DNA from: Patescibacteria group bacterium
GTDB lineage: Bacteria > Patescibacteriota > Microgenomatia > UBA1400 > PJMF01
NCBI GenBank assembly: GCA_041747555.1
Contig: JBGTEY010000013.1
Coordinates: forward strand, 16,814 to 80,813
Direction: 5' to 3'
DNA length: 64,000 nucleotides
Part shown: positions 1-32,496 of the stretch, piece after piece
How the letters are laid out: each line of letters begins with the position of its first letter
How positions within the stretch are numbered: the first letter of the stretch is position 1
Made by a program: the position numbers and the translations under genes
Notes under the pieces: model-generated
The model's input: only the letters and a program-made list of their open reading frames with translations
What the model was told of the DNA's origin: nothing
The model's database searches: none

Positions 1-139
1 TCCTAACCGCTAGACGATGGGGCCATCTAGAATTGACCATTATATCAGTTTCCCTCCCAATTCACTACCAATCCACAATATATGGTACGATAGAGGTACT
101 ATAACGGTAGGAAGAGTACCTCTTCAGATCAAGGACATC

Positions 140-661
140 ATGCCACAGCAAATTCTCGATCGATTGACAGATAAACAAGCGATGGATTTCATTAAATCAA
201 TCGAAAAACCATTCAAAGATTTACCTCACTTACCAGAAGCAATTCCGAGCATTTTGGTAAAAATCTCACCATGGTTGGCGCTTGTTGGCGGTGCGTTTGG
301 GCTGCTTGGTGCGTTGCAATCGATTTCATATGGAATTGGCGGCGGTACCGCGTACCAGCGAATATTTTCTGAGTTTGCTGGGTTACCTGCTTGGTATTTT
401 ATCGTTGTCGGGTTGTTGCAACTTGTATCGTCAGCGCTGCTTTTATTAGCGTTCAAGCACCTCAAGAACAGAACTACGACCGGATGGGTGTACCTATTTT
501 GGAATATGGCCCTTATGGTTGCACAATCACTCATCGGCATACTTGCTGGTTTGGGAGGTGTGGTTGGATTTGTGGTCGTGACCGCAATCAGCTACTATCT
601 CTTGTTTGAAATGAAGCCATTTTATGGAAAAACCTCAAAAGCAACGGAAGCTATGAATTAA
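140..661 (+). CDS. Polytopic membrane protein, unknown function; true start likely the internal ATG at 140
   Basis: Long ORF with 4-5 hydrophobic helices and GxxxG-rich segments. No recognisable catalytic motif. Confidence 0.35.
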   Translation: MPQQILDRLTDKQAMDFIKSIEKPFKDLPHLPEAIPSILVKISPWLALVGGAFGLLGALQSISYGIGGGTAYQRIFSEFAGLPAWYFIVVGLLQLVSSALLLLAFKHLKNRTTTGWVYLFWNMALMVAQSLIGILAGLGGVVGFVVVTAISYYLLFEMKPFYGKTSKATEAMN

Positions 662-686: not shown

Positions 687-946
687 TTCGTTTAGAAATT
701 GTAAATAAGATGGATACTACAGCTCGTTTCGAACGTAATATTTGATTAGCACCTGGACTTGATCGTTCTGTGCTAAGTTTGGTGGTTCTTGCTCTGCTAA
801 AATAAGGAGCTCATGAAATCCATCTTTAGAGAGAATTGATTCATCCCAATTTATGAGCGGTGTATATTGAACACGTGCAGATATGCCGAGTGCATCAGTC
901 CGCGCACTAACTCTTTGACAGTACCTATATCTTGAGCTACTAAGTT

Positions 947-1345
947 CTACTTTTGATCAAAATACCAAGCTACTTGTAGATCCCTTTTCACCTCACGGTC
1001 ATTGGCGTTTTCAAATAGTCGTACAGAAAGCTCGATAGTTTCATCAGGAGACTGGAGGTCAATTTGGTGGAGTGTATTGCGGGTGGGCTCGTTGAGTGGA
1101 AACGTAGACTCAGAGACCGTGATTGGTGTGCCAAATGCAGCTTCAAAATCTTGAGCGAATTGCTCCATCGTATCGCGTAACACGGTGACATGCTGATTCT
1201 TAGGTGTCGCCATCAAAATTTGCTGCAAATTAGAATCAACCATGAGTTTTTGCGTAAAGAATTCAGTAAAATTTGATCGTTGTTCTGCGCGCGGATGGGC
1301 AGGATTTGGTCGATCCATGCGTGCGAATGAGTCTGGTTCTACCAT
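947..1345 (-). CDS. Hypothetical protein, possible divergent member of the tandem paralog family
   Basis: C-terminal LQVAWYFDQK resembles the Y-x-I-x-F-E-I tail of the three downstream paralogs. Confidence 0.35.
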   Translation of the reverse strand: MVEPDSFARMDRPNPAHPRAEQRSNFTEFFTQKLMVDSNLQQILMATPKNQHVTVLRDTMEQFAQDFEAAFGTPITVSESTFPLNEPTRNTLHQIDLQSPDETIELSVRLFENANDREVKRDLQVAWYFDQK

Positions 1346-1471
1346 AGGGGGATCCTTCTTGAGTCACTGGTACAGTTGTATGTACTGTACAACACTCTTT
1401 GAAGAAAAAAAAGATTTGAGTACAATGAGGCCTGCGGCAAGTCTGTGCAATGCCTCACCTTTCAGTCTGAT

Positions 1472-1990
1472 TTATTGCTCAATAACATCTAGAGAGCGCA
1501 CAAATAGAATTGGCATATCGTCATATTTCAAAAATTCATTTTCATCGAGATCTGGACCAAGTGTATCTCGCAATTCCTGCTCTGTCAGCTCGCGCACGGT
1601 GCCCGTGACTTCAACAATTGCACTATCACCAAGTCCGAGTTGAGCATCAGTTGTATCCTGCGGTGGGCTAAATGGCTGTTCAGAAAAGACGATTATCCCC
1701 TTATTTGCAATCGATAAGTCCTGCACTTCAAGGATAAAGGCTTGTTTGGTCACCCAAGCCTCCACTTCACCAACAACGATAACTTCTGTGTCGTCAAATA
1801 CCTGCGGAGCATCAGCAATATCCCCAACTGATACGATGTCTTCTTTGTCAGTTGTTGTAAGCTTTGCTGTATCAGGCTCTTTGGGTGTAAGGGTTGGCAT
1901 ATTGAACGCCGACACAATCACAAAAACGGTAAAGAAAATACCGGCCAGAGCGAGCAGAATTATAAATGTGTTTTTTACCATACGGTCCAA
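1472..1990 (-). CDS. Hypothetical membrane-anchored or secreted protein
   Basis: N-terminal hydrophobic helix (ILLALAGIFFTVFVIV), then an acidic beta-rich domain. Confidence 0.4.
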   Translation of the reverse strand: MDRMVKNTFIILLALAGIFFTVFVIVSAFNMPTLTPKEPDTAKLTTTDKEDIVSVGDIADAPQVFDDTEVIVVGEVEAWVTKQAFILEVQDLSIANKGIIVFSEQPFSPPQDTTDAQLGLGDSAIVEVTGTVRELTEQELRDTLGPDLDENEFLKYDDMPILFVRSLDVIEQ

Positions 1991-2104
1991 TATACCAATT
2001 GCTATGAAGTAGTGATGATAAGAATATGATAATTCAAGAGACCATACCTTACGTGACAGATTGGTAAGGGTTGTGTAAGAAGAGCGAGGTAGTATGAAAT
2101 CAAA

Positions 2105-2419
2105 TTAGTATTGTTTTTTAAATGCTGCTTCCAACCCAGTTATTGTCTGAACCAATGGCAAAAGCAGATCTTTTTGTGCAGGTGGTGCGACTTTATAAAG
2201 GGTCATAACCTCAATACGAGCTGTTTTAAGGCAATTACCAATATATTTGCCAAGCATCTCTGCGAGTCTTGGCGGGTTATTGGGCTCAGTAATGTCTGCA
2301 TGGAGTTTCGTCACAATCACCATCATCTCAGCCAAACTGTCTTCATCAGTTGGAATAGGTGTTTCTGGGGGTACAAGCTTGACGTAGGCGAGACTCGAGT
2401 GGAGTTCCATCATCAGCAT
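2105..2419 (-). CDS. Hypothetical protein
   Basis: ORF only. The track start at 2494 overlaps the upstream gene, so the internal Met is more likely. Confidence 0.3.
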   Translation of the reverse strand: MLMMELHSSLAYVKLVPPETPIPTDEDSLAEMMVIVTKLHADITEPNNPPRLAEMLGKYIGNCLKTARIEVMTLYKVAPPAQKDLLLPLVQTITGLEAAFKKQY

Positions 2420-2450
2420 TGATATCGCAATCCAGAACGCTGCTTCGGAA

Positions 2451-2966
2451 TTATCGGGGCGTTGGGTTTTGGCTTCGAGCAATTGATTGATCATGGATTT
2501 CGAAGGATATTTGATAAGTTGGAGTAATTTGATCTTGATTTGGAATTAGAGACACATAGAAATACGCTGCGTACTGCGTGCCATCGGGCGTCGGGTGGGA
2601 ATACAGGTAGGGCGGAATGTCTGCAGTATAGTAACAATTTGTATTAGCGAGCGCGGTACCTGGTTCATTCTGTCTGAACTCGATGTTGAATCGTGAGGCT
2701 GACGGCATTTGAGGAACATACGCTTCTAAAAGCTGATCAATTGCTATTGTTTCTTGGGGTGAAAAAAGAAATTGCTGTTGGATACCGTCTGTGTGGACAA
2801 GCGCGAAGAGATCTGCAAGGAGCTGCTGCAGTGTGTGCTCATGACGCAAGAGATGTTCTGGGTGGGCAGCGGGAGGGGCTTTACGGGAAGGATCTGACTC
2901 TGGGGGCTCAGTAGGTTTGAGTCTTAATCGTGATTTCTTGGTGGCTATTTCAAGAGTTTGTATCAT
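2451..2966 (-). CDS. Hypothetical protein, tandem paralog family member 1
   Basis: C-terminal GTQYAAYFYVSLIP...YQISFEIHDQS aligns with the ORFs at 3029-3622 and 3742-4278. Confidence 0.45.
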   Translation of the reverse strand: MIQTLEIATKKSRLRLKPTEPPESDPSRKAPPAAHPEHLLRHEHTLQQLLADLFALVHTDGIQQQFLFSPQETIAIDQLLEAYVPQMPSASRFNIEFRQNEPGTALANTNCYYTADIPPYLYSHPTPDGTQYAAYFYVSLIPNQDQITPTYQISFEIHDQSIARSQNPTPR

Positions 2967-3028
2967 TGACAGTTTTTTGGTGCTGTATTATGAGTGTATC
3001 ATAGGTATTTTGTTATGGGTTGACTGGA

Positions 3029-3622
3029 TTATTTGCTTGGTGGTGCGGGATTTGTTCTCTTGAATCGTTCTCTCATTGTTGGCAAATGTTCGTGGATTTC
3101 AAAGGCGATAGTGTACTTACCTTTGTACTCTGGATCTGTAGTGTCTTTATTCTTAATGTTGCCCGGGGTGTGGATGATGTAAAAACGTGCTTCCCACTGA
3201 TATCCGTTATGATCTCTTGATGTGAGAATCGGGCTGGTGTCAGTAACGAGCACGCCTTCATTCTTCAATGAATTCACTGACCAACTAAACTGAAAATTAA
3301 CAAATTTTTTGTCTTCTCTCAGCTTTGCAACCATAGGCTCAAAGAGATTGTAGACAGGATCGATGTAGTCGGGAGAAAACCAGAGTTTGTGGCTAAATTT
3401 CTCATCGGTACAGAATGCGTCAATAGTGTCGACGAGGTAGTGGACGAATAGTTTGTTGAGTGTAAAGCGTTCTTGAGGACCAGATTCATTTGCAAAGTTA
3501 TCACTTAAAATTTTGAGTAGTGCATCAGGAGAGACGCCCATGGCTGCAGTGGCACGGATGGCTTCTACTTCAGGGTCGAGAATCGGTGTGGGGGTTGCTA
3601 TTGCTTCGTGTGTTTTTGCCAT
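3029..3622 (-). CDS. Hypothetical protein, tandem paralog family member 2
   Basis: GYQWEARFYIIHTP...YTIAFEIHEH tail. N-terminal PEVEAIRATA resembles PELEAIAITA in the next paralog. Confidence 0.45.
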   Translation of the reverse strand: MAKTHEAIATPTPILDPEVEAIRATAAMGVSPDALLKILSDNFANESGPQERFTLNKLFVHYLVDTIDAFCTDEKFSHKLWFSPDYIDPVYNLFEPMVAKLREDKKFVNFQFSWSVNSLKNEGVLVTDTSPILTSRDHNGYQWEARFYIIHTPGNIKNKDTTDPEYKGKYTIAFEIHEHLPTMRERFKRTNPAPPSK

Positions 3623-3741
3623 AGCTTAGATGCTATTTATTGTCTATAGTAATTATTATAGCATATTTATGATGATTGGAAGATTTTTGAACTAATTTGA
3701 CTTGTGTTGGTGTAATTTTATTCGTCAAAAACCGAAGCGAT

Positions 3742-4278
3742 TTACATCACTTCAAAATCGTGATCAAATTCATCGTTGGCATTGGGTTGAACAGTAGCAT
3801 CATCATCTGGTTCAACTTCTACAATAAAATAGGTAATTTCGTACTGAGCTTTTTGTGTAGCAGTGCCACGTTTAAAGACAATGAAAAATTGAGCTCGATA
3901 CTGAAAACCGTCTTTTGGCTTAGATCTAATGCTTATGCGAGTTTCGTTATTGAGAATAGTAAGTGGTGCCGTTTCTAGCTGAAATGCGTTCACTTTTTTG
4001 ACAACTCTTATTTCAAGGTTTTCTTCATCAACGCTGAGACCATGTGCGAGATTAGCCAGAATATTTCCTATTCGATTATCTAAGGTGTTAAATGAGATGA
4101 GATTATCGAAGGGAGTAAGTATTCTAGTTATTGAGTCCTGAATTTGTTCAGCTACCAGATAGTTGGGTGTAGCTCGTTTTTCGAGTTTGACGAGCTCTTT
4201 TAGGGCCGTTATTGCTATTGCTTCAAGTTCGGGAAATCTGGATGTGTCTAGGCCTTCGTGCTGTATTTCTTTGTTCAT
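3742..4278 (-). CDS. Hypothetical protein, tandem paralog family member 3
   Basis: GFQYRAQFFIVFKRG...YEITYFIVEVEP tail. Shared N-terminal motif with 3029-3622. Confidence 0.45.
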   Translation of the reverse strand: MNKEIQHEGLDTSRFPELEAIAITALKELVKLEKRATPNYLVAEQIQDSITRILTPFDNLISFNTLDNRIGNILANLAHGLSVDEENLEIRVVKKVNAFQLETAPLTILNNETRISIRSKPKDGFQYRAQFFIVFKRGTATQKAQYEITYFIVEVEPDDDATVQPNANDEFDHDFEVM

Positions 4279-4346
4279 ATAATTAAGTATGGCTTATAGT
4301 AATATAGTATATCATTAATTTGAATGAAGTGAGATTCAAGAGAAGA

Positions 4347-8758: not shown

Positions 8759-11263
8759 TTATAAATTCAGTCGCCTCAACACAACCGTCCCATCCTCATC
8801 AATATTCCCATCCAAAGACATTTTCTTCACTGAGTGCCCATAGCCATTTGCCAGGCCATTGTTGCCAGCTCGCTTCAGTTCAAAATCATGACCAGATACC
8901 ATCTCGTGTTCTTCGGTACCTGGGTTTTTCATCGACTTCATACTCAAATCCACCCACTCATCCGCTCCCATCGCCTTGGGGTACCGACTATCCGGCTCAT
9001 CATAATCACTAATATCTCGCGCCACAGCCGGTACATCTCCTACATCCACCACATCCCCACTCACACCATACGAAGTAATTGACCGCCCAACCACGCCACT
9101 CGCATGCGCCAATGCTTTTTCATTATCCAGATGAAATCCATGCTTGGTCTTGGCCCAATAATGCGGCGCCACGATCAAGCTCCACACTGCCTTCCATGCC
9201 GCCACACTCATCATCAGCCAGTAGAACGGCACCAAAAACACATATTTAATAATCTCATCATGCCCCCGTTTGGCACAGCCAATCATGTAGTAGTACATGT
9301 ACAAGAAATTGCCAAAAACCAGACACGTCAGCGCCATATAAAACACCGCCGCCGGAAAGAACGGCTCAATCGCAGGCCCCAATGTAGACCGAAATACAAA
9401 GTACAAAATCGTCGTCGCCCACATAATCGGGTTAATAAACATACTCATCACCTTGCCACCAACCACCAGCTGAAAGGTCAACACATGCGGCTCACTCCAG
9501 CTGCGCAAGAACTCACGAGGGTTTCTCATGTGCACCAAGTAGGTCTGGATATAGCCCTTAATCCAGCGACTTCTCTGACTAAACCAATTAAAGAAATCAC
9601 TATTTGCTTCTTCGTTGGTAATCGAGTCCACAATGGCAGTCCTCAAGCCCCGTTTGACCATCCTGATGCCAAGGTCACAGTCTTCGGTCACGTTAAATGA
9701 ATCCCAGCCGTGCAACTCCTTGAGAATGCTGGTCTTAAAATGATTGCTCGTCCCACCCAACGGGATTGGCGCATGAATTGCCTGTAACCCCGTGAGCACC
9801 AAGTCAAACCACAGCGAATACTCTGCAGTAAAGACTCTGGTTAGCAAATTCTGATGCGGATTATAAAAATTGAGCTTCGCCTGCATGCAGACGACTTCTT
9901 TAGGGACTTTGTCAAATGCGAGGACGACTTTTTTGAGCTGGTCGGGCTCTGGGACATCTTCTGCGTCGTAGATCACCACATAATCGCTCTCAATTCTGTG
10001 CAGGGCGTAGTTACATGCCTTGGGCTTGGTCTTGGGGAAGGAATCGGGCACTACCATCACTTCAAAATGTGAGGGGAGTGCGAATTCTTTGACTTTTTGG
10101 AGCGTTTCGGTGTCGTCTTCCTCGAGCAAAAGATATACCTTGAGCTTGTCCTTGGGGTACTCCATCTGATCCATGCTGGTTACAAATTGGGGGATGACCT
10201 GCCATTCCTTATAGAGCGGGCAGAGAATTGCGTAGGTGGGGAGGTCTTTGTCCTCGAGTGCAGTAACTTTTTTGGGCTCGATCTTGATTTCTGGTGAATG
10301 AATAAAACTTTGGACAATGAGGAGCAAATTAAAGAGTAAGTCTACAAAATACAGGACAGTCAGCACTGCAATAAGTATTAAAAGAGTTGTTCTCCAGCTC
10401 GTGATCAGAAAAAATGCCAAAAACGCAACTAAGGCAACCAAAAAAAACGACTGCTTGCGGCTGAGTCTGGTAAACGCGCTCTCTGCATGAGGAAGCGGCG
10501 TGTGGTGGATGTACTTCTTGGAGCGATGGTGAAACCCGTGTCCGACTGATTCAATTTCTGTGGGATGAAATGGGATAATTCTGCGGTAGTGGGTGAGGAG
10601 CAATAGTGCTTGCCAGCTTAACTGGAGTGAAGCGTGGATGAGGTTGGTTTTGTGTTTACCATATTTTCTGGGCTGGAGTGCCACGTCGATTGATTCAATC
10701 ACGGCGCCCGCGTTGCGTGCATTCACTAGGAATTCAAGGTCAAAGGTCCATTGACTGGGATTGAGTTGAAGTCGCTCATATATGTTTTTGCGAAAAACTT
10801 TCATCCCTGATTGCACATCAACGGTAAAACCGTGCAGCGTTTTGCCAAACAATACCCTAAAGAGTGTTGCCAAGACCTTGCGATGGGCATCAACATTGAG
10901 TTCAAAGCGATTTGCAACCACAATATCGGCGCCCGCATCGAGTTTCTTGACCATTTTTTCAAAATTCTCTGGGGAGTATTGGAGATCCCCGTCAATCATG
11001 CCGATATAGTCGTACTGTGCTGCGGCAAAGCCTTCGATCAGTGACTGACCCTTACCTCGATTACCTGTTTTTTTGAGTAATTTGACTGCAGGAGAAGGAA
11101 AAGCTTTTACTCTATCTGGTGTGCCATCATCTGATCCATCATCGATGACCAAAATTTCAAATGTTGGGGTTATTTTTTCACATACAGCGACCGTACGTTC
11201 AAGCAAAATTGTGATACTTTTTGCTTCATTAAGGGTGGGAATGATGATAGAAATGCCTCTCAT
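8759..11263 (-). CDS. Bifunctional membrane glycosyltransferase: N-terminal Dpm1-like GT2 plus C-terminal processive GT2 synthase domain (QxxRW)
   Basis: Domain 1 is ISIIIPTLNEA...VIDDGSDDGT. A TM block follows. Domain 2 is AILCPLYKE...DAEDVPEPDQL...TEDCDLGIRM...QRSRWIKGY (D, D, TED and QxxRW motifs of cellulose/hyaluronan-synthase-like enzymes). More TM helices and an acidic roughly 130-aa tail follow. Start chosen at MRGISIII (11263). Confidence 0.75.
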   Translation of the reverse strand: MRGISIIIPTLNEAKSITILLERTVAVCEKITPTFEILVIDDGSDDGTPDRVKAFPSPAVKLLKKTGNRGKGQSLIEGFAAAQYDYIGMIDGDLQYSPENFEKMVKKLDAGADIVVANRFELNVDAHRKVLATLFRVLFGKTLHGFTVDVQSGMKVFRKNIYERLQLNPSQWTFDLEFLVNARNAGAVIESIDVALQPRKYGKHKTNLIHASLQLSWQALLLLTHYRRIIPFHPTEIESVGHGFHHRSKKYIHHTPLPHAESAFTRLSRKQSFFLVALVAFLAFFLITSWRTTLLILIAVLTVLYFVDLLFNLLLIVQSFIHSPEIKIEPKKVTALEDKDLPTYAILCPLYKEWQVIPQFVTSMDQMEYPKDKLKVYLLLEEDDTETLQKVKEFALPSHFEVMVVPDSFPKTKPKACNYALHRIESDYVVIYDAEDVPEPDQLKKVVLAFDKVPKEVVCMQAKLNFYNPHQNLLTRVFTAEYSLWFDLVLTGLQAIHAPIPLGGTSNHFKTSILKELHGWDSFNVTEDCDLGIRMVKRGLRTAIVDSITNEEANSDFFNWFSQRSRWIKGYIQTYLVHMRNPREFLRSWSEPHVLTFQLVVGGKVMSMFINPIMWATTILYFVFRSTLGPAIEPFFPAAVFYMALTCLVFGNFLYMYYYMIGCAKRGHDEIIKYVFLVPFYWLMMSVAAWKAVWSLIVAPHYWAKTKHGFHLDNEKALAHASGVVGRSITSYGVSGDVVDVGDVPAVARDISDYDEPDSRYPKAMGADEWVDLSMKSMKNPGTEEHEMVSGHDFELKRAGNNGLANGYGHSVKKMSLDGNIDEDGTVVLRRLNL

Positions 11264-11334
11264 GAACCCTTCATTATAGCAATTATAGTGATGCCTGTCG
11301 CTCGAAATAATTAGGGGTGTTATACTAAATAGAT
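11264..11334. promoter_or_regulatory. Divergent promoter region between the GT fusion gene and sppA, with repeated ATTATAG elements
   Basis: 71-nt AT-rich spacer. TATAAT present on the minus strand (revcomp of ATTATA) twice, 9 nt apart. Confidence 0.25.
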
Positions 11335-12444
11335 ATGCAACAAAAATCACACCTACTTGTCAGGGCCATGAAACATTTTTTTAGAGTATTCCTGAGTGTT
11401 AACGCCGTAATTATTGGTATATTTTCTAGTTTGGCAGTGATTGGAATTATGTCAGCGATGGTTTCTGATGACACAGCCGTTTCTGGCACGAGCTCAATTT
11501 CAGAAGACTATCGTGTCTTGGTTGGTGAAGACGATGCCGAACATCAATTTGCGTCAATTGCACTTGATGGAATTATTTTAGGTGACAGAAGTGAATTTGA
11601 GCAGATTTTTGAGGCATTTGCCTCTGGTGGAGTCACCTTTGGGTATGATGTCAAAGATGAGCTCTATGAACTCGCCGATGCCGATGAAGTCGCAGGAATT
11701 GTCTTAGAAATCAATTCTCCCGGAGGAACAATCTTTGGCACCCAAGCAATTGTTGATGGCGTTACCTATTATCGACAACAGACCAACAAACCTGTGGTTG
11801 CATATATAGGCAGCATTGCCGCATCTGGTGGATACTGGGCTGCGGTGAGTGCTGATGAGATTATTGCTGATGCTGGTACAACCATTGGTAGCATCGGTGT
11901 CATTACTGGACCTATTAAATTTTATGACGGCGTGGTGAGTGAGGATGGCGGCGCATTTATTGGAGGAATCGAAACCACCGGTGGCGTCCAGACAACATTT
12001 TTCACCGCAGGAGAGGGTAAAGATATGGGTAATCCCTACCGACCAATGACCGATCGTGAGCGACAAGTCTTGCAAGGGGCTGTAGATAGTAGTCATAGCA
12101 CGTTTGTCGATTATGTTTCAGAGCGTCGCGCTGTTGATCGAGCGACCGTTACCCAAATGTGGGGTGGATATATTTATAACGACATTCAAGCTACCCAACT
12201 AGGAATGGTTGATAACCGAGGCTCAAAGGATGCCGCCTACAACATCGTTGCAGAGCGTGCAGGTGTTGCTATCGATGACTCCTCCATCATTAGATACAGA
12301 TCAGGTGGTGGATTTTTTGATCAGTTATTTGGTGTGGTGAGTGATGCGCAGACTGAGCTTAAGGCTGGGCGCGTGTCTGGTGGGTGTTTGTATAGCCAAC
12401 ATGTGATGGCGTATCACGGGGATTTGGCTGGGTTGTGTTTTTAG
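11335..12444 (+). CDS. sppA: Signal peptide peptidase SppA (S49 family, 36K type)
   Basis: EINSPGGTIFG and GSIAASGGYWAAVSADEIIADAGTTIGSIGV match the SppA Ser/Lys dyad region. N-terminal TM anchor. Confidence 0.7.
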   Translation: MQQKSHLLVRAMKHFFRVFLSVNAVIIGIFSSLAVIGIMSAMVSDDTAVSGTSSISEDYRVLVGEDDAEHQFASIALDGIILGDRSEFEQIFEAFASGGVTFGYDVKDELYELADADEVAGIVLEINSPGGTIFGTQAIVDGVTYYRQQTNKPVVAYIGSIAASGGYWAAVSADEIIADAGTTIGSIGVITGPIKFYDGVVSEDGGAFIGGIETTGGVQTTFFTAGEGKDMGNPYRPMTDRERQVLQGAVDSSHSTFVDYVSERRAVDRATVTQMWGGYIYNDIQATQLGMVDNRGSKDAAYNIVAERAGVAIDDSSIIRYRSGGGFFDQLFGVVSDAQTELKAGRVSGGCLYSQHVMAYHGDLAGLCF

Positions 12445-26129: not shown

Positions 26130-27767
26130 TTACTGGTTCTGCTGCTCTATGATTGTAGTAGAGAGCTTGAGTAAATTTTCTCGAGTATTTTGATCTGGAT
26201 CATTGAGTACTACTTGCAACAATTCTGTAAGAATAGTGCCGAGTATCGGGCCAGGTTTGAGTGAAAATTCTTCCATCAAATCGGTTCCATTTATAGCTAA
26301 ATCAGTCACCTCCATTGGCTGATGGAGCTGCTCAATCATGCGTTGCTTCATTTCTTCGAGGCGCCAGCTTGTCTTACGGGCACCACTGCCCAAACGGTCA
26401 GCCTCTCTGACATCAAGAATATCATCCAAGTGTTCCAGCCCAACATTGCGCATAAAACGTCGAATAGACGCATCAGAGTTTTGCTCTTGGTAATGGAACA
26501 TATGAAACCGCACTAAGATAAAAAGACGATCGATGTCTTTCTTTGATAATTTCAGCCGTTGCCCAATTTTTTTGGCAATTCTGGCACCGATCACTTCGTG
26601 ATTGTAGAAGGTAGGCTGACCATTAATGAGCTTCATGGTTTGAGGTTTGGCAATATCATGAATCAGTGTTGCCAGCCGAACAATTGGATCAGTTGCAGGA
26701 GACGCTTCAAGTGCATCGAGACTATGCGTCCAGACGTCTGTGGTGTGATGACCACCTTGTTCGACGTTTTTTGCTTCTAGGAGCTCTGGCAAAACGGTTT
26801 GTAAGAGACCCGTTTCGTCAAGGAGCTCAATTGCTCGCTTTGGTTGCTTGCTCGATATCATTTTCAAAAACTCGGTGCTTATCCGTTCCCAACTAACAAA
26901 TGAGAGGAGATCTGCCTTTTTCTTAATAGCTTGCACCGTGTCTTGATCTATCGTTGCTTCAAGTTGAACAGCGAAACGAATTGCCCTGAGCAGGCGGAGT
27001 GCATCCTCGGTAAAACGGTCCTCGGCAATCCCGACTGTTTTCACAAGCTTGTTTTGTAAATCGGTATAACCATTAAAAGGATCAATAATGGTGTAATCGC
27101 TTGATGAGAGTGTACTATTCAGCTGAGTATCAAGGACTGTGCTGGTCTTTTTGGTTTCTAGTGCGGTCGAAAGTACATCAGAGGATAGTTGAATTGCCAT
27201 GGCGTTGATAGTGAAATCTCTACGTTCAAGGTCATCTTCGATATTTTCTCCCCAGCTCACTTGATCAGGCTTGCGGTGATTCTGATACGCTCCGTCAGAG
27301 CGAAAGGTAGTGATTTCAAAATTTTTAAGTTTAGAAAGAACTTTAGACGCTTTTTGGTCATCAGAAATCACTTCTTGCTGTAGCGATACATGAATTTTTG
27401 TTGCAGCTGAAATATCAATTATGCGATTTTCTCGATTTGTGTCATTTGGGAGGAGCCGTTCTGCCATCTCAAGGTCATCAAGTTTGTGCGGTAGTACTTT
27501 CCAAATTTCGGGTGGAGTTATCATCACTGTTCCATACTCATTTTCATAAAAACTTTCTGGAAACACTTTAAGAATTTGCTCAGGAGTAGCATTTGTAGTG
27601 AAGTCAAAATCAACAATGTGATCACGCCCCTGCAATAGATCACGCACCGCTCCACCCACAAGGTAGCACTCATACCCTGCAGCGTCCAGTTGTTTCATGA
27701 TATATACAACCTCAATTGGAATAGGAAGGCTGGTTGGAGGAGTAGTCGGTGAATCCATAGCCTTCAT
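26130..27767 (-). CDS. cca: CCA tRNA nucleotidyltransferase/poly(A) polymerase family protein with HD domain
   Basis: LVGGAVRDLLQGRDHIVDFDFTT is the head-domain motif. HHTTDVWTHSL and IHDIAKP are HD motifs. The start is trimmed to the ATG at 27767, because the track ORF runs into recJ. Confidence 0.7.
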   Translation of the reverse strand: MKAMDSPTTPPTSLPIPIEVVYIMKQLDAAGYECYLVGGAVRDLLQGRDHIVDFDFTTNATPEQILKVFPESFYENEYGTVMITPPEIWKVLPHKLDDLEMAERLLPNDTNRENRIIDISAATKIHVSLQQEVISDDQKASKVLSKLKNFEITTFRSDGAYQNHRKPDQVSWGENIEDDLERRDFTINAMAIQLSSDVLSTALETKKTSTVLDTQLNSTLSSSDYTIIDPFNGYTDLQNKLVKTVGIAEDRFTEDALRLLRAIRFAVQLEATIDQDTVQAIKKKADLLSFVSWERISTEFLKMISSKQPKRAIELLDETGLLQTVLPELLEAKNVEQGGHHTTDVWTHSLDALEASPATDPIVRLATLIHDIAKPQTMKLINGQPTFYNHEVIGARIAKKIGQRLKLSKKDIDRLFILVRFHMFHYQEQNSDASIRRFMRNVGLEHLDDILDVREADRLGSGARKTSWRLEEMKQRMIEQLHQPMEVTDLAINGTDLMEEFSLKPGPILGTILTELLQVVLNDPDQNTRENLLKLSTTIIEQQNQ

Positions 27768-27789
27768 TATACTGCATTTTGTTGCTACA

Positions 27790-29505
27790 ATGACTGCCAT
27801 GCGCTGGCAGATACAAACATCACACATTCCAAAAAATTTAGACGAGCTCAAAGAAATTTTACTTGCAAATCGAAACATTTCAGAGAGCGATGATTTTTTC
27901 TCGCCTCCTGATCCATTTACTATAACCGCCGAAGAAATTGGATGTAACAAGAAGCAACTCCAGAGCGCGCTGGACAGATTTTTTGTTGCGTTAGAAAAAA
28001 AGCAAGACATCGTGATTTTTGGGGATTATGACGCAGATGGAATTTGTGCTTCTGCAGTGTTATGGCATGTCCTCACTACTCTCAAGGCAACAGTGCGGCC
28101 GTTCATCCCACAGCGTGAGGTTCATGGATATGGCCTCAGCATTCCAGCACTAGAAGAAATAATCACCGAAAAAAAACCAGATCTTATCATCACTGTCGAC
28201 AACGGCATTGTGGCACACGAAGCAGTTGATTTTGCTCGTGAAAATAACGTCGATATCATCATCACCGACCACCATCAGCCAGAAGAAAAAGCAAAAAAAG
28301 AGCATTTACCAAAAGCCAACGCAGTTGTTCACACCACGGCACTCTGTGGAACAACCGTAGCCTGGATGTTTGCTCGTGAAATCATTGCCGCACATAAAAA
28401 AACAGGCCCCGCAGGTGTGCAAAAAAATGCTGAACGAATTCTAAAAGACACCCTCGATCTCTGCGGAATTGCCACCGTAGCCGACCAAGTGCCACTGCTC
28501 GGGTACAACAGGGGTTTCGCTACTGCAGGTATCGCAGCTTTACAAAAAAGCGCTCGCCCCGGCATTAGAGCCCTCTGTGCTCAAGCAAATATTGATCAAG
28601 CGGCAATCACCAGTGACTCAATCGGATTTGGAATTGCTCCCCGAATCAACGCCATGGGTAGGCTTGCACACGGACTTGACGCACTGCGATTGCTCTGTAC
28701 GGGAAACTTTACCAAAGCTACCGAATACGCGCAGGTGCTTGGCAACAAAAATGACCAGCGAAAAGACATGACTGCAGAAATGTTTGCCCACGCCATGCAA
28801 CAAGCTAAGTTGCAAGCGGAAGAGCATGTACTCATTGTTGGCTCTGCTGAATATCATGAAGGAATAATTGGATTGATAGCAGGGAGATTGAGCGAGCGGT
28901 TTTCTAAACCAGCAATCGTGGTAAGTTTTGGCAAAACAGTGGCTAAAGCATCGGCCCGGTCAGTCATTGGAGTGAATATTGTTGAGTTTATTCGAGAAGT
29001 ACAGGCTGATTTGCTTGCAGTTGGCGGGCATCCAATGGCTGCGGGGTTTGGGTTGGCGATGGATAATTTTGAGAAAGTTCAAAAAAAACTCTTTGAGCTT
29101 GGACGCGAAACAATTGGATCTGAGCTACTAACGCCTGGGCTAGAAATTGACTGTGAGATCCCGTGGCAGCTTGTCACAGAAAAACTAGTAACTTTGCAAG
29201 AAGCATTTGCACCATTTGGTTCAGCAAATCCGCGTCCCGTATTCATCCTCACGTGCGAAGTCCAATCCACCAAACGCATTGGCGCAGAAGGCAAGCATCT
29301 CAAATTATTTCTCGGTGAATCAGACGAAACTGGTATGACAAATTCTCTAGAAGCATTAGCCTGGAATAGAGGTGAGTGGGCAGAATCATTAGAGGAGGGA
29401 CAAAAGGTTCGGGTTGCGGTTAAAGTTGAGTTAAATACATGGCAAGGTCGGTCAAAAGTTCAGTTGGTTATCCGCGATATGCAGAATCCTGAAGAAGCAC
29501 CGTAA
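27790..29505 (+). CDS. recJ: Single-stranded-DNA-specific exonuclease RecJ (DHH family)
   Basis: IFGDYDADGICA, IITDHHQP and GGHPMAAG are DHH/DHHA1 motifs. Start set at MTAMRWQ. Confidence 0.85.
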   Translation: MTAMRWQIQTSHIPKNLDELKEILLANRNISESDDFFSPPDPFTITAEEIGCNKKQLQSALDRFFVALEKKQDIVIFGDYDADGICASAVLWHVLTTLKATVRPFIPQREVHGYGLSIPALEEIITEKKPDLIITVDNGIVAHEAVDFARENNVDIIITDHHQPEEKAKKEHLPKANAVVHTTALCGTTVAWMFAREIIAAHKKTGPAGVQKNAERILKDTLDLCGIATVADQVPLLGYNRGFATAGIAALQKSARPGIRALCAQANIDQAAITSDSIGFGIAPRINAMGRLAHGLDALRLLCTGNFTKATEYAQVLGNKNDQRKDMTAEMFAHAMQQAKLQAEEHVLIVGSAEYHEGIIGLIAGRLSERFSKPAIVVSFGKTVAKASARSVIGVNIVEFIREVQADLLAVGGHPMAAGFGLAMDNFEKVQKKLFELGRETIGSELLTPGLEIDCEIPWQLVTEKLVTLQEAFAPFGSANPRPVFILTCEVQSTKRIGAEGKHLKLFLGESDETGMTNSLEALAWNRGEWAESLEEGQKVRVAVKVELNTWQGRSKVQLVIRDMQNPEEAP

Positions 29506-32441: not shown

Positions 32442-32496
32442 CAAAGGAATAGCATCACTCTACTGAGAGTGATATACTCAGGAAATCAAACTACAT

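Follow-up and report, generated by a model that had tools for sequence, protein, structure and literature searches.

Three consecutive minus-strand genes in the 64-kb window (the whole stretch of 64,000 nucleotides of DNA that was analyzed) encode true paralogs, here named D, E and F, and together with a helical, non-paralogous partner, C, they constitute a four-gene cassette that is conserved as a unit in a second lineage. All four ORFs listed in the original prediction (2451-2966, 3029-3622, 3742-4278 and 947-1345) are present on the minus strand, and its claim of three tandem paralogous small proteins is confirmed for the first three, which are real protein-coding genes. Gene C (2105-2494) was absent from that prediction. 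The family appears to be undescribed, in that no known family or defence system matched it, and it is "new" by elimination only. The features discussed below are as follows.

3742..4278, minus strand: paralog F (178 aa), ORF in one orthogroup with P0004
3029..3622, minus strand: paralog E (197 aa), ORF of the central member joining D and F, in one orthogroup with P0005
2451..2966, minus strand: paralog D (171 aa), ORF sharing an orthogroup with P0007 (over its N-terminal ~150 residues)
2105..2494, minus strand: gene C (129 aa, predicted helical), conserved alongside D, E and F and not their paralog
4306..4314, minus strand: promoter-like element of the extended -10 type, TGATATACT, located 28 nt upstream of where F starts (consensus match only)
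3655..3663, minus strand: putative promoter-like element of the extended -10 type, TGCTATAAT, located 33 nt upstream of where E starts
3732..3755, minus strand: terminator-like hairpin with a T-run, overlapping the F stop codon

Pairwise alignment gave significant similarity for both neighboring pairs of the array. D and E align over 123 residues with a BLASTP E-value of 9e-8 and a Smith-Waterman z of 8.7, a score that was reached by none of 500 shuffles, and E and F align over 147 residues (BLASTP E-value 2e-5; Smith-Waterman z = 7.9 against 500 shuffles). The direct similarity between D and F is weak (E-value 0.029, z 1.8), and these two proteins are linked transitively, via E and the common profile. 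The two C-terminal blocks described in the original prediction are present, but their details need correction: the first block reads G-(T/Y/F)-Q-(Y/W)-x-A-x-F-(Y/F)-(V/I), with T at position 2 in D; the second, Y-x-I-x-F-E-I, holds for D and E, whereas F has Y-E-I-T-Y-F-I; and the spacing between the blocks is ~20 residues in E and ~12 in D and F. The N-terminal motif reported for two of the proteins is real, the PEVEAIRATA/PELEAIAITA match between E and F lying within their BLASTP alignment.

The ORF at 947-1345, which had been put forward as a fourth member on account of a similar tail, is unrelated to the family. Its Smith-Waterman z against D, E and F is 0.1-0.6, it does not match the family profile, and hhalign gave a probability below 0.2% against both the six-member profile and the D-subfamily profile. 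Its look-alike segments (TIELSVRLFE, then LQVAWYF) occur in an order inverted relative to the two blocks of the family. Profile comparison also rejected the ORF at 1472-1990 (gene B), and the flanking proteins of L064 and a 381-aa protein of the contig L002 were tested as cryptic family members and found not to be members.

In an HMMER scan covering all 1.84 billion representative proteins, the relatives from outside the window's own lineage came from a single further one, a Microgenomates-group MAG, in which both relatives lie on a single 7.7-kb contig (L002). The only further match was P0006 (357 aa, E-value 2.4e-4), which was discarded: the similarity involves a segment of 27 residues that occurs five times over in this tandem-repeat protein of low complexity. 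Word-index protein searches with family alignments returned only proteins of the present contig and of L002, and the same kind of search with C added one new relative, P0012. The alignment of the F ortholog pair found no matches among genome, metagenome and viral contigs, nor did that of the E pair among metagenome and viral contigs, and a literature search for the accessions returned nothing.

Reciprocal best hits sort the proteins into three orthogroups, a result drawn from a minimal sample of two available lineages: F with P0004 (200 aa; phmmer 4e-29, reciprocal 1e-29; bootstrap for the F pair 99.7%), E with P0005 (180 aa; 7e-16, reciprocal 4.5e-16), and D with P0007 (253 aa; 4e-8, reciprocal 1.3e-8). 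The family profile matches residues 37-151 of P0007 at 7e-10, and P0007 additionally carries a helical C-terminal extension that is absent from D; this extension has no homolog within the window, and it was rejected as a fused C-like domain, having no similarity to C. Gene C matches P0011 of L002 (123 aa) at 1.2e-11 and P0012 at 2e-39 with 50% identity. Orthologs of D, E, F and C are one-to-one, despite only 23-36% identity between the lineages. Because a distant Microgenomates genome carries a separate ortholog for every one of the paralogs, the triplication is judged to be ancient, with all three copies kept, and the array reads as an old triplet instead of the locally duplicated, rapidly diverging family envisaged in the original prediction.

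The gene order of the cassette is F-E-D-C in the window and F'-C'-D'-E' in L002. Its flanking genes differ between the two genomes, those in the window encoding a PMT_2-like membrane protein, GT2s and small proteins of no assigned family, and those in L002 encoding the 381-aa protein (function unknown), a HAD-like protein, a GT4 glycosyltransferase and a 592-aa unknown protein. Since the flanking genes are not common to both genomes, the conserved unit is the four-gene cassette itself. A further member of the C family was found in a third lineage; it lies on a contig of 2.4 kb, and the proteins adjacent to it have no detectable similarity to D, E or F, so that C is not strictly tied to the triplet.

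None of the databases of known families accommodated these proteins, in agreement with the original prediction that no known domain could be assigned. Pfam and NCBIfam gave no match below E 0.1 for D, E, F, P0004, P0005 or P0007, except for P0004 against tRNA-synt_1c (E 0.095, 12 bits against a cut-off of 23.4 bits), which is at chance level; every hit fell well short of its cut-off. PDB sequence profiles returned no match for the family, and C matched nothing in Pfam, NCBIfam or PDB. PADLOC-DB matched zero families for 10 proteins (orthologs included), PHROGs gave nothing below E 0.05, and no relatives appeared in IMG/VR scans or in tblastn searches of INPHARED phages and PLSDB plasmids. With a query model of pLDDT 68, Foldseek gave no clear match among solved and viral predicted folds (E <= 1e-3 or TM >= 0.5). 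That model, an AF2 prediction for E from a six-sequence alignment (pTM 0.64), places helices at the N-terminus ahead of about four beta strands.

D, E and F are acidic and soluble proteins (pI 4.8-6.0), and both they and their orthologs lack TM segments and signal peptides (hydropathy over 19 residues at most 1.43). F, with a pI of 4.8, has a strongly acidic C-terminal tail, a feature conserved in its orthogroup (net charge -10 in F and -7 in P0004). The columns invariant among the six members (M1, F82, S135, A145, F147 and Y170) are nearly all hydrophobic or aromatic, and therefore contain no acid/base catalytic set. D and C share 44 nt, the start of C lying within the end of D, an overlap that points to translational coupling of the two genes; the ATG at 2494 as the start of C is backed by the N-terminal alignment with its homologs. 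Judging from consensus matches, a separate promoter seems to precede each of F and E: six of the window's seven TGNTATAMT matches are correctly oriented and sit just upstream of the point where a gene or tRNA begins. The F and E spacers also have ATTACTATA in common. The hairpin at 3732..3755 is weak evidence for a terminator, as shuffled sequences contain at least as many terminator-like sites in total as this region does.

We tentatively propose, as the best of several explanations, that D, E, F and C are non-catalytic subunits acting together. D, E and F go back to one gene that was triplicated long ago and whose soluble, acidic product of ~170-200 residues is predicted to have helices at the N-terminus followed by a small beta sheet; with the helical C they make up a self-contained cassette in a CPR/Patescibacteria (Microgenomates-like) chromosome. 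The four proteins are taken to be non-redundant, non-enzymatic and jointly acting because of their one-to-one retention, the hydrophobic/aromatic core devoid of catalytic-looking residues, and the D/C coupling. They would then associate physically, most likely as subunits or adaptors of one cytoplasmic hetero-oligomeric assembly, in which the acidic tail of F-type proteins may serve as a subunit-specific interaction element. Hetero-oligomers built of anciently duplicated paralogous subunits are a general principle, and the present proteins resemble them in that old paralogs are retained jointly, each with its own orthologs and with subunit-specific features (such as the F tail), and in that the partner gene C is probably translationally coupled. 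They differ in that the gene order and promoters of the cassette are not of the tight-operon type. Several observations stand against an assembly: the promoter-like elements of F and E and the possible F terminator make an atypical layout for stoichiometric subunits, and the C family occurs in the third lineage apart from D/E/F-like neighbors. Moreover, two strains of the other lineage are 99.85% identical, and three of their four SNPs are amino-acid changes in E' (P = 0.028, a tiny sample); this cluster, like the extreme rarity of D, E and F, would be more in keeping with accessory proteins that evolve fast than with a core structural function.

Alternatively, though we consider this unlikely, the cassette might be an immunity, antitoxin or other conflict array, in which each paralog acts against a different incoming toxin or phage factor, or an undescribed defence system. 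Tandem paralogs that are small, soluble and non-enzymatic and match no known domain would suit such a role, as would the extremely patchy distribution of the family, the different context of the cassette in the two genomes, and the amino-acid changes in E'. In addition, a defence island comprising a TrlF-family ATPase (431 bits), a type I R-M system and a large serine recombinase lies ~4 kb from the cassette, beyond the left end of the window. However, the island is set apart by a tRNA-Glu gene, three unrelated genes and a clearly different composition. Its GC content (0.32-0.36 versus 0.38-0.47) is more than 2 sd lower, and the GC, GC3 and codon choice of the cassette are within ~1-2 sd of the window gene mean; by composition, the cassette is native to the chromosome. 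In neither genome does the cassette contain or adjoin a toxin, a nuclease, an ATPase or a TM effector, no defence genes were found on the L002 contig, and every cassette protein and ortholog was negative in PADLOC. The strict 1:1:1 orthology also differs from a variable copy number. With no phage or plasmid relatives either, the idea in the original prediction that the array serves immunity, anti-phage defence or host interaction gained no positive support.

Polymorphic toxin systems are said, in work attributed to Zhang, Aravind and colleagues in 2012, to include orphan or poly-immunity arrays of tandem immunity genes (e.g. SUKH/Imm). Like them, D, E and F are tandem paralogs, small, soluble, non-catalytic alpha+beta proteins that are rare, lineage-restricted and devoid of a conserved active site. 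Unlike them, the six members scanned have no Imm/SUKH or other Pfam match, no toxin gene or domain lies near the cassette, the conserved unit includes the non-paralogous helical partner C, and D, E and F are ancient 1:1:1 orthologs whereas the arrays vary in number and content. Compared with PADLOC systems located beside R-M/TrlF islands, the cassette is similar in being a small multi-gene unit ~4 kb from an island with type I R-M, TrlF and recombinase genes, but it has no model match and no enzymatic or membrane effector component, its composition differs from that of the island, and its L002 counterpart has no defence neighbors.

A more novel reading, namely that the family represents a previously undescribed fold and serves either in a hetero-oligomeric apparatus specific to CPR or as immunity or defence proteins of a new family under diversifying selection, also seems rather improbable to us. 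If the proposed explanation is right, the protein family would be one not described before, perhaps along with its fold, with three ancient paralogs and a helical partner retained in ultra-small CPR bacteria, and D, E, F and C would form a compact four-protein system that is easily expressed. Either a hetero-oligomer or a new immunity or defence family would be a new functional module in CPR, where most lineage-specific genes are unexplained. Orphan families such as D/E/F are common in CPR genomes, and nothing in the present data shows a new kind of biological system.

It is distinctly unlikely that the four proteins are cytoplasmic accessory factors of the neighboring envelope-glycan pathway, for instance chaperones or scaffolds for glycosyltransferases and a 526-aa PMT_2-like membrane protein. 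The cassette does lie 68 nt downstream of a co-directional gene run encoding this membrane protein, an 863-aa double GT2, two GT2s and a polysaccharide pyruvyl transferase, and a GT4 gene is found ~0.6 kb from the L002 cassette. However, genes for glycosyltransferases and sugar-nucleotide enzymes abound all along the window, so that such adjacency is expected by chance. The GT4 of L002, the only such gene near the cassette there, belongs to a different family and lies on the opposite strand in convergent orientation, none of the glycan genes of the window has a homolog on L002, and F has its own promoter-like element. The location next to envelope genes, which had been mentioned in the original prediction, therefore carries little weight, considering also the promoter-like element of E and the different flanks in L002.

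Export of the proteins by a non-classical route, as effectors or surface factors for host-cell interaction in the episymbiotic lifestyle of CPR bacteria, is likewise given little chance. The family is lineage-restricted and fast-diverging, and the neighboring gene B (1472-1990) has a signal-anchor-like N-terminal helix; against this, D, E, F and their orthologs have neither signal peptides nor TM segments, no secretion genes were found at either locus, and gene B has no homolog on L002. Far less probable, and largely refuted, is the explanation that the array is prophage or integrative-element cargo inserted at the tRNA-Glu gene. A tRNA-Glu(CTC) gene is indeed located at the left edge of the window, adjoined by the large serine recombinase, but the tRNA separates the array from the recombinase and the low-GC island, which are on its other (3') side, the array is native in GC, GC3 and codon use, no direct repeats or tRNA fragment bound it, and the searches of PHROGs, IMG/VR, INPHARED and PLSDB produced no relatives. 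Finally, that the similarity among D, E and F is due to chance or that the ORFs are non-coding, for which the missing annotation is the sole argument, is ruled out in practice by the shuffle statistics and by protein conservation in the second lineage reaching 4e-29.

The family may also be compared with the hypothetical-protein families that show enrichment among Microgenomates and CPR genomes, which are defined as widespread in the group (Meheust et al. 2019, PMC6744442). The D/E/F family is similarly uncharacterized and limited to CPR/Microgenomates-type genomes; the organism is assigned to this group from LysRS best hits, at 69% or less, to Patescibacteria/Pacebacteria MAGs and from the source name given for the orthologs. 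A difference is that, with 1.84 billion representatives searched, D, E and F were detected in no more than two lineages, and another is that they are soluble, membrane proteins being frequent among the families of that study.

Six ORFs follow one another on the minus strand at window positions 900-4300:

947-1345, minus strand: ORF A, 132 aa
1472-1990, minus strand: ORF B, 172 aa
2105-2494, minus strand: ORF C, 129 aa, predicted helical
2451-2966, minus strand: ORF D, 171 aa, family member
3029-3622, minus strand: ORF E, 197 aa, family member
3742-4278, minus strand: ORF F, 178 aa, family member

The paralogy of D, E and F was borne out by significant scores between D and E (BLASTP E-value 9e-8; Smith-Waterman z = 8.7, a score matched in 0 of 500 shuffles) and between E and F (E-value 2e-5; z = 7.9), while D and F, whose direct similarity is weak (E-value 0.029, z 1.8), are joined through E as the connecting member. 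The shared motifs of the original prediction are present, except that D carries T instead of Y/F in the G-x-Q block and F has YEITYFI in place of YxIxFEI; the PE(V/L)EAI..TA match at the N-termini of E and F was confirmed and falls within their BLASTP alignment. ORF A, proposed as a fourth member, proved unrelated (z ≤0.6 against D, E and F): the family profile does not match it, its hhalign probability is <0.2%, and its two look-alike segments stand in reverse order relative to the family blocks. Between A and a convergent 214-aa membrane protein (17-661, plus strand) lies a 285-nt gap (662-946) with no ORF of at least 50 aa, whose minus strand resembles, judged by eye, short coding remnants past the stop codon of A. 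ORF B was also rejected as a member. Its N-terminus is strongly hydrophobic (19-residue hydropathy 2.89) if translation starts at TTG 1990 or ATG 1981; with its start at 1900, the public gene call loses this segment. Membrane anchoring or export is probable for B, a very acidic protein (pI 4.05).

When the family alignments were used in a word-index search of 5.8 billion clusters, the only proteins recovered were this contig's own and, from a second search, P0007. Of the hits from a HMMER scan of 1.84 billion 50%-identity representatives with a three-paralog profile, P0004 (5e-18) and P0005 (8e-11) are the only real relatives; P0006, also returned, is a repeat artefact. Both relatives are encoded on one 7.7-kb contig (L002) from a MAG of 'Microgenomates group bacterium', and a second strain fragment (L065) is 99.85% identical to it. 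Pattern scans added no relatives from GTDB species genomes, JGI metagenomes or IMG/VR, and tblastn added none from phage and plasmid collections.

The L002 gene row comprises a 381-aa unknown protein, P0004, a 123-aa protein (P0011), P0007 (253 aa) and P0005. Reciprocal phmmer searches between window and L002 proteins paired them as follows, all cross-pairs being far weaker:

F with P0004: E-value 4e-29 forward, 1e-29 reverse
E with P0005: E-value 7e-16 forward, 4.5e-16 reverse
D with the N-terminal ~150 residues of P0007: E-value 4e-8 forward, 1.3e-8 reverse

The neighbour-joining tree groups F with P0004 (bootstrap 99.7%) and D with P0007 (60%). C, absent from the original prediction, matches the 123-aa protein (1.2e-11). 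Homologs of the remaining L002 proteins were sought in the window, and those of A and B on L002, and none were found; gene order is F-E-D-C in the window versus F'-C'-D'-E' on L002. One ortholog per paralog, a C ortholog and unshared neighbours together indicate, at the sequence level, that the triplication is older than the split of the two lineages, that D, E, F and C have all been retained, and that this four-gene cassette, not its surroundings, is the conserved unit. The array is thus not the locally duplicated, rapidly diverging one originally described, since each paralog has its own L002 ortholog. P0007 (L002:2553-3314) has an additional helical C-terminal extension of ~100 residues, missing from D in the window; considered as a C-like domain, it was rejected, having no similarity to C and no window homolog. 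A closer homolog of C, P0012 (50% identity, 2e-39), occurs in a third lineage (L064:1147-1524, a 2.4-kb contig from Logan ERR14369873), where it lies between two unknown proteins (338+ and 203+ aa), each cut by a contig end. Similarity of these neighbours to D/E/F was looked for and none was detectable, so the C family extends beyond the triplet.

As originally supposed, the family could not be placed in any known domain: Pfam, NCBIfam, PADLOC and PHROGs gave no credible match, nor did PDB sequences for the family profile (best E-value 0.6) or for C. An acidic pI (4.7-6.0) is common to D, E, F and their orthologs, none of which has a hydrophobic segment fitting a signal peptide or transmembrane helix, and the C-terminal tail of the F orthogroup is strongly acidic (net -10 and -7). 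An AF2 model from three sequences was poor (pLDDT 49.5); with six sequences (pLDDT 68, pTM 0.64; core residues 55-180, pLDDT 68-88) it shows four to five N-terminal helices, then about four beta strands. The six members share invariant M1, F82, S135, A145, F147 and Y170 and near-conserved Gly140 and Gln142, which would make up a hydrophobic/aromatic core surrounding a beta hairpin and include no plausible catalytic set.

The window carries the chromosomal markers SecD, CCA-adding enzyme, RecJ, a class II aminoacyl-tRNA synthetase and DnaX, and is on this basis chromosomal. The longest ORFs of CCA-adding enzyme (26130-28010, minus strand) and RecJ (27697-29505, plus strand) overlap by ~314 bp, and for one or both the true start is probably further downstream. 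The organism is assigned to CPR/Patescibacteria because the synthetase, compared with 185,579 species representatives, is closest to MAGs of Patescibacteria, Pacebacteria and Paceibacterota (≤69% identity). An identical Logan contig (L001) runs beyond the left end of the window, where two features were located:

about window -48 to 24, straddling position 1, minus strand: tRNA-Glu(CTC)
L001:13599-20594, just past window position 1: low-GC island (GC 0.32-0.36)

This region, a probable integrated defence island, encodes a large serine recombinase (Resolvase, Recombinase and Zn ribbon), the S and M subunits of a type I R-M system and a TrlF-family AAA-like ATPase of 893 aa that scores 431 bits (cut-off 350). 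The array genes, unlike the island, lie near the window means (GC 0.38-0.47 against 0.427; GC3 0.30-0.43 against 0.375), and no repeats or tRNA fragments bounding the array were found; the array therefore looks native and does not belong to the island.

D/E/F and C thus very probably represent a real, anciently triplicated orphan family with a helical partner, chromosome-native and confined to a few lineages of Microgenomates type. D and C overlap by 44 nt and the annotated C start is backed by alignment with P0012 and P0011, which suggests translational coupling. As to mechanism, the reading that we tentatively favour is that the four proteins could be non-catalytic subunits or adaptors working together, probably as a hetero-oligomer, because three non-redundant paralogs and C are retained at 23-36% identity, catalytic residues are absent, subunit-specific features exist and D and C may be coupled. 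Orphan families abound in CPR genomes, and an undescribed one would not much surprise a specialist. Two analogies come closest: the orphan immunity arrays found in polymorphic toxin systems, for which D/E/F fails every membership test that could be applied, and the Microgenomates-enriched hypothetical families of Meheust et al. (PMC6744442), compared to which D/E/F is far rarer. The family is undescribed and counts as new by elimination only.

A role in conflict (immunity or defence) would agree with how extremely rare the family is, with the differing genomic context of the cassette, with the defence island nearby and with the SNP pattern of the two strains. Over 2,684 bp, four SNPs separate L002 from L065: three change amino acids (I28L, K31E, Y145F) in the E' gene (L002, 3393-3935; L065, 609-1151), and the fourth is synonymous in a neighbouring gene (P = 0.028 for at least three of four in E', from a very small sample); this is perhaps a hint that E' evolves fast at the amino-acid level. 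However, none of the known immunity or defence families matches, neither a toxin nor an effector is close by, orthology is 1:1:1 and composition is native, so the immunity idea gained no positive support and we consider it unlikely. Glycan genes are dense across the window (GT2s, PMT-type proteins, pyruvyl transferase, sugar-nucleotide enzymes), but adjacency within this region is the sole basis for a part in the adjoining glycan pathway, which is improbable. At 8759-11350 (minus strand) an 863-aa protein is encoded that has a pair of GT2 domains; the second belongs to the processive Glyco_trans_2_3 type. Two GT2 genes, a polysaccharide pyruvyl transferase gene and one for a 526-aa PMT_2-like membrane protein follow it in the same direction, and the run is probably a cluster for the synthesis of surface glycans. 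Exported host-interaction factors are equally doubtful, as export signals are lacking. Mobile-element cargo is highly improbable and chance similarity still more so, both being essentially excluded.

Candidate expression signals occur in the orphan cassette and elsewhere in the window, those at E and F being consensus matches only:

33 nt upstream of the E ATG: extended -10-like element TGCTATAAT
28 nt upstream of the F ATG: extended -10-like element TGATATACT
after F: terminator-like hairpin
39-47, minus strand, ~15 nt upstream of tRNA-Glu: TGATATAAT

Six of the seven window matches to the extended -10 pattern precede a gene or tRNA start. The signals at E and F suggest that the paralogs do not simply form the end of the glycosyltransferase operon upstream. 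Extended -10-like TGNTATAMT elements also occur at 11273-11281 (minus strand), 11318-11326 (plus) and 32470-32478 (plus), ~9-19 nt before the annotated starts of the 834/863-aa double GT2, an S49 peptidase and UDP-glucose dehydrogenase. Since such elements lie close to starts and no Shine-Dalgarno sequence is visible at any array gene, leaders in this organism may be very short or absent.
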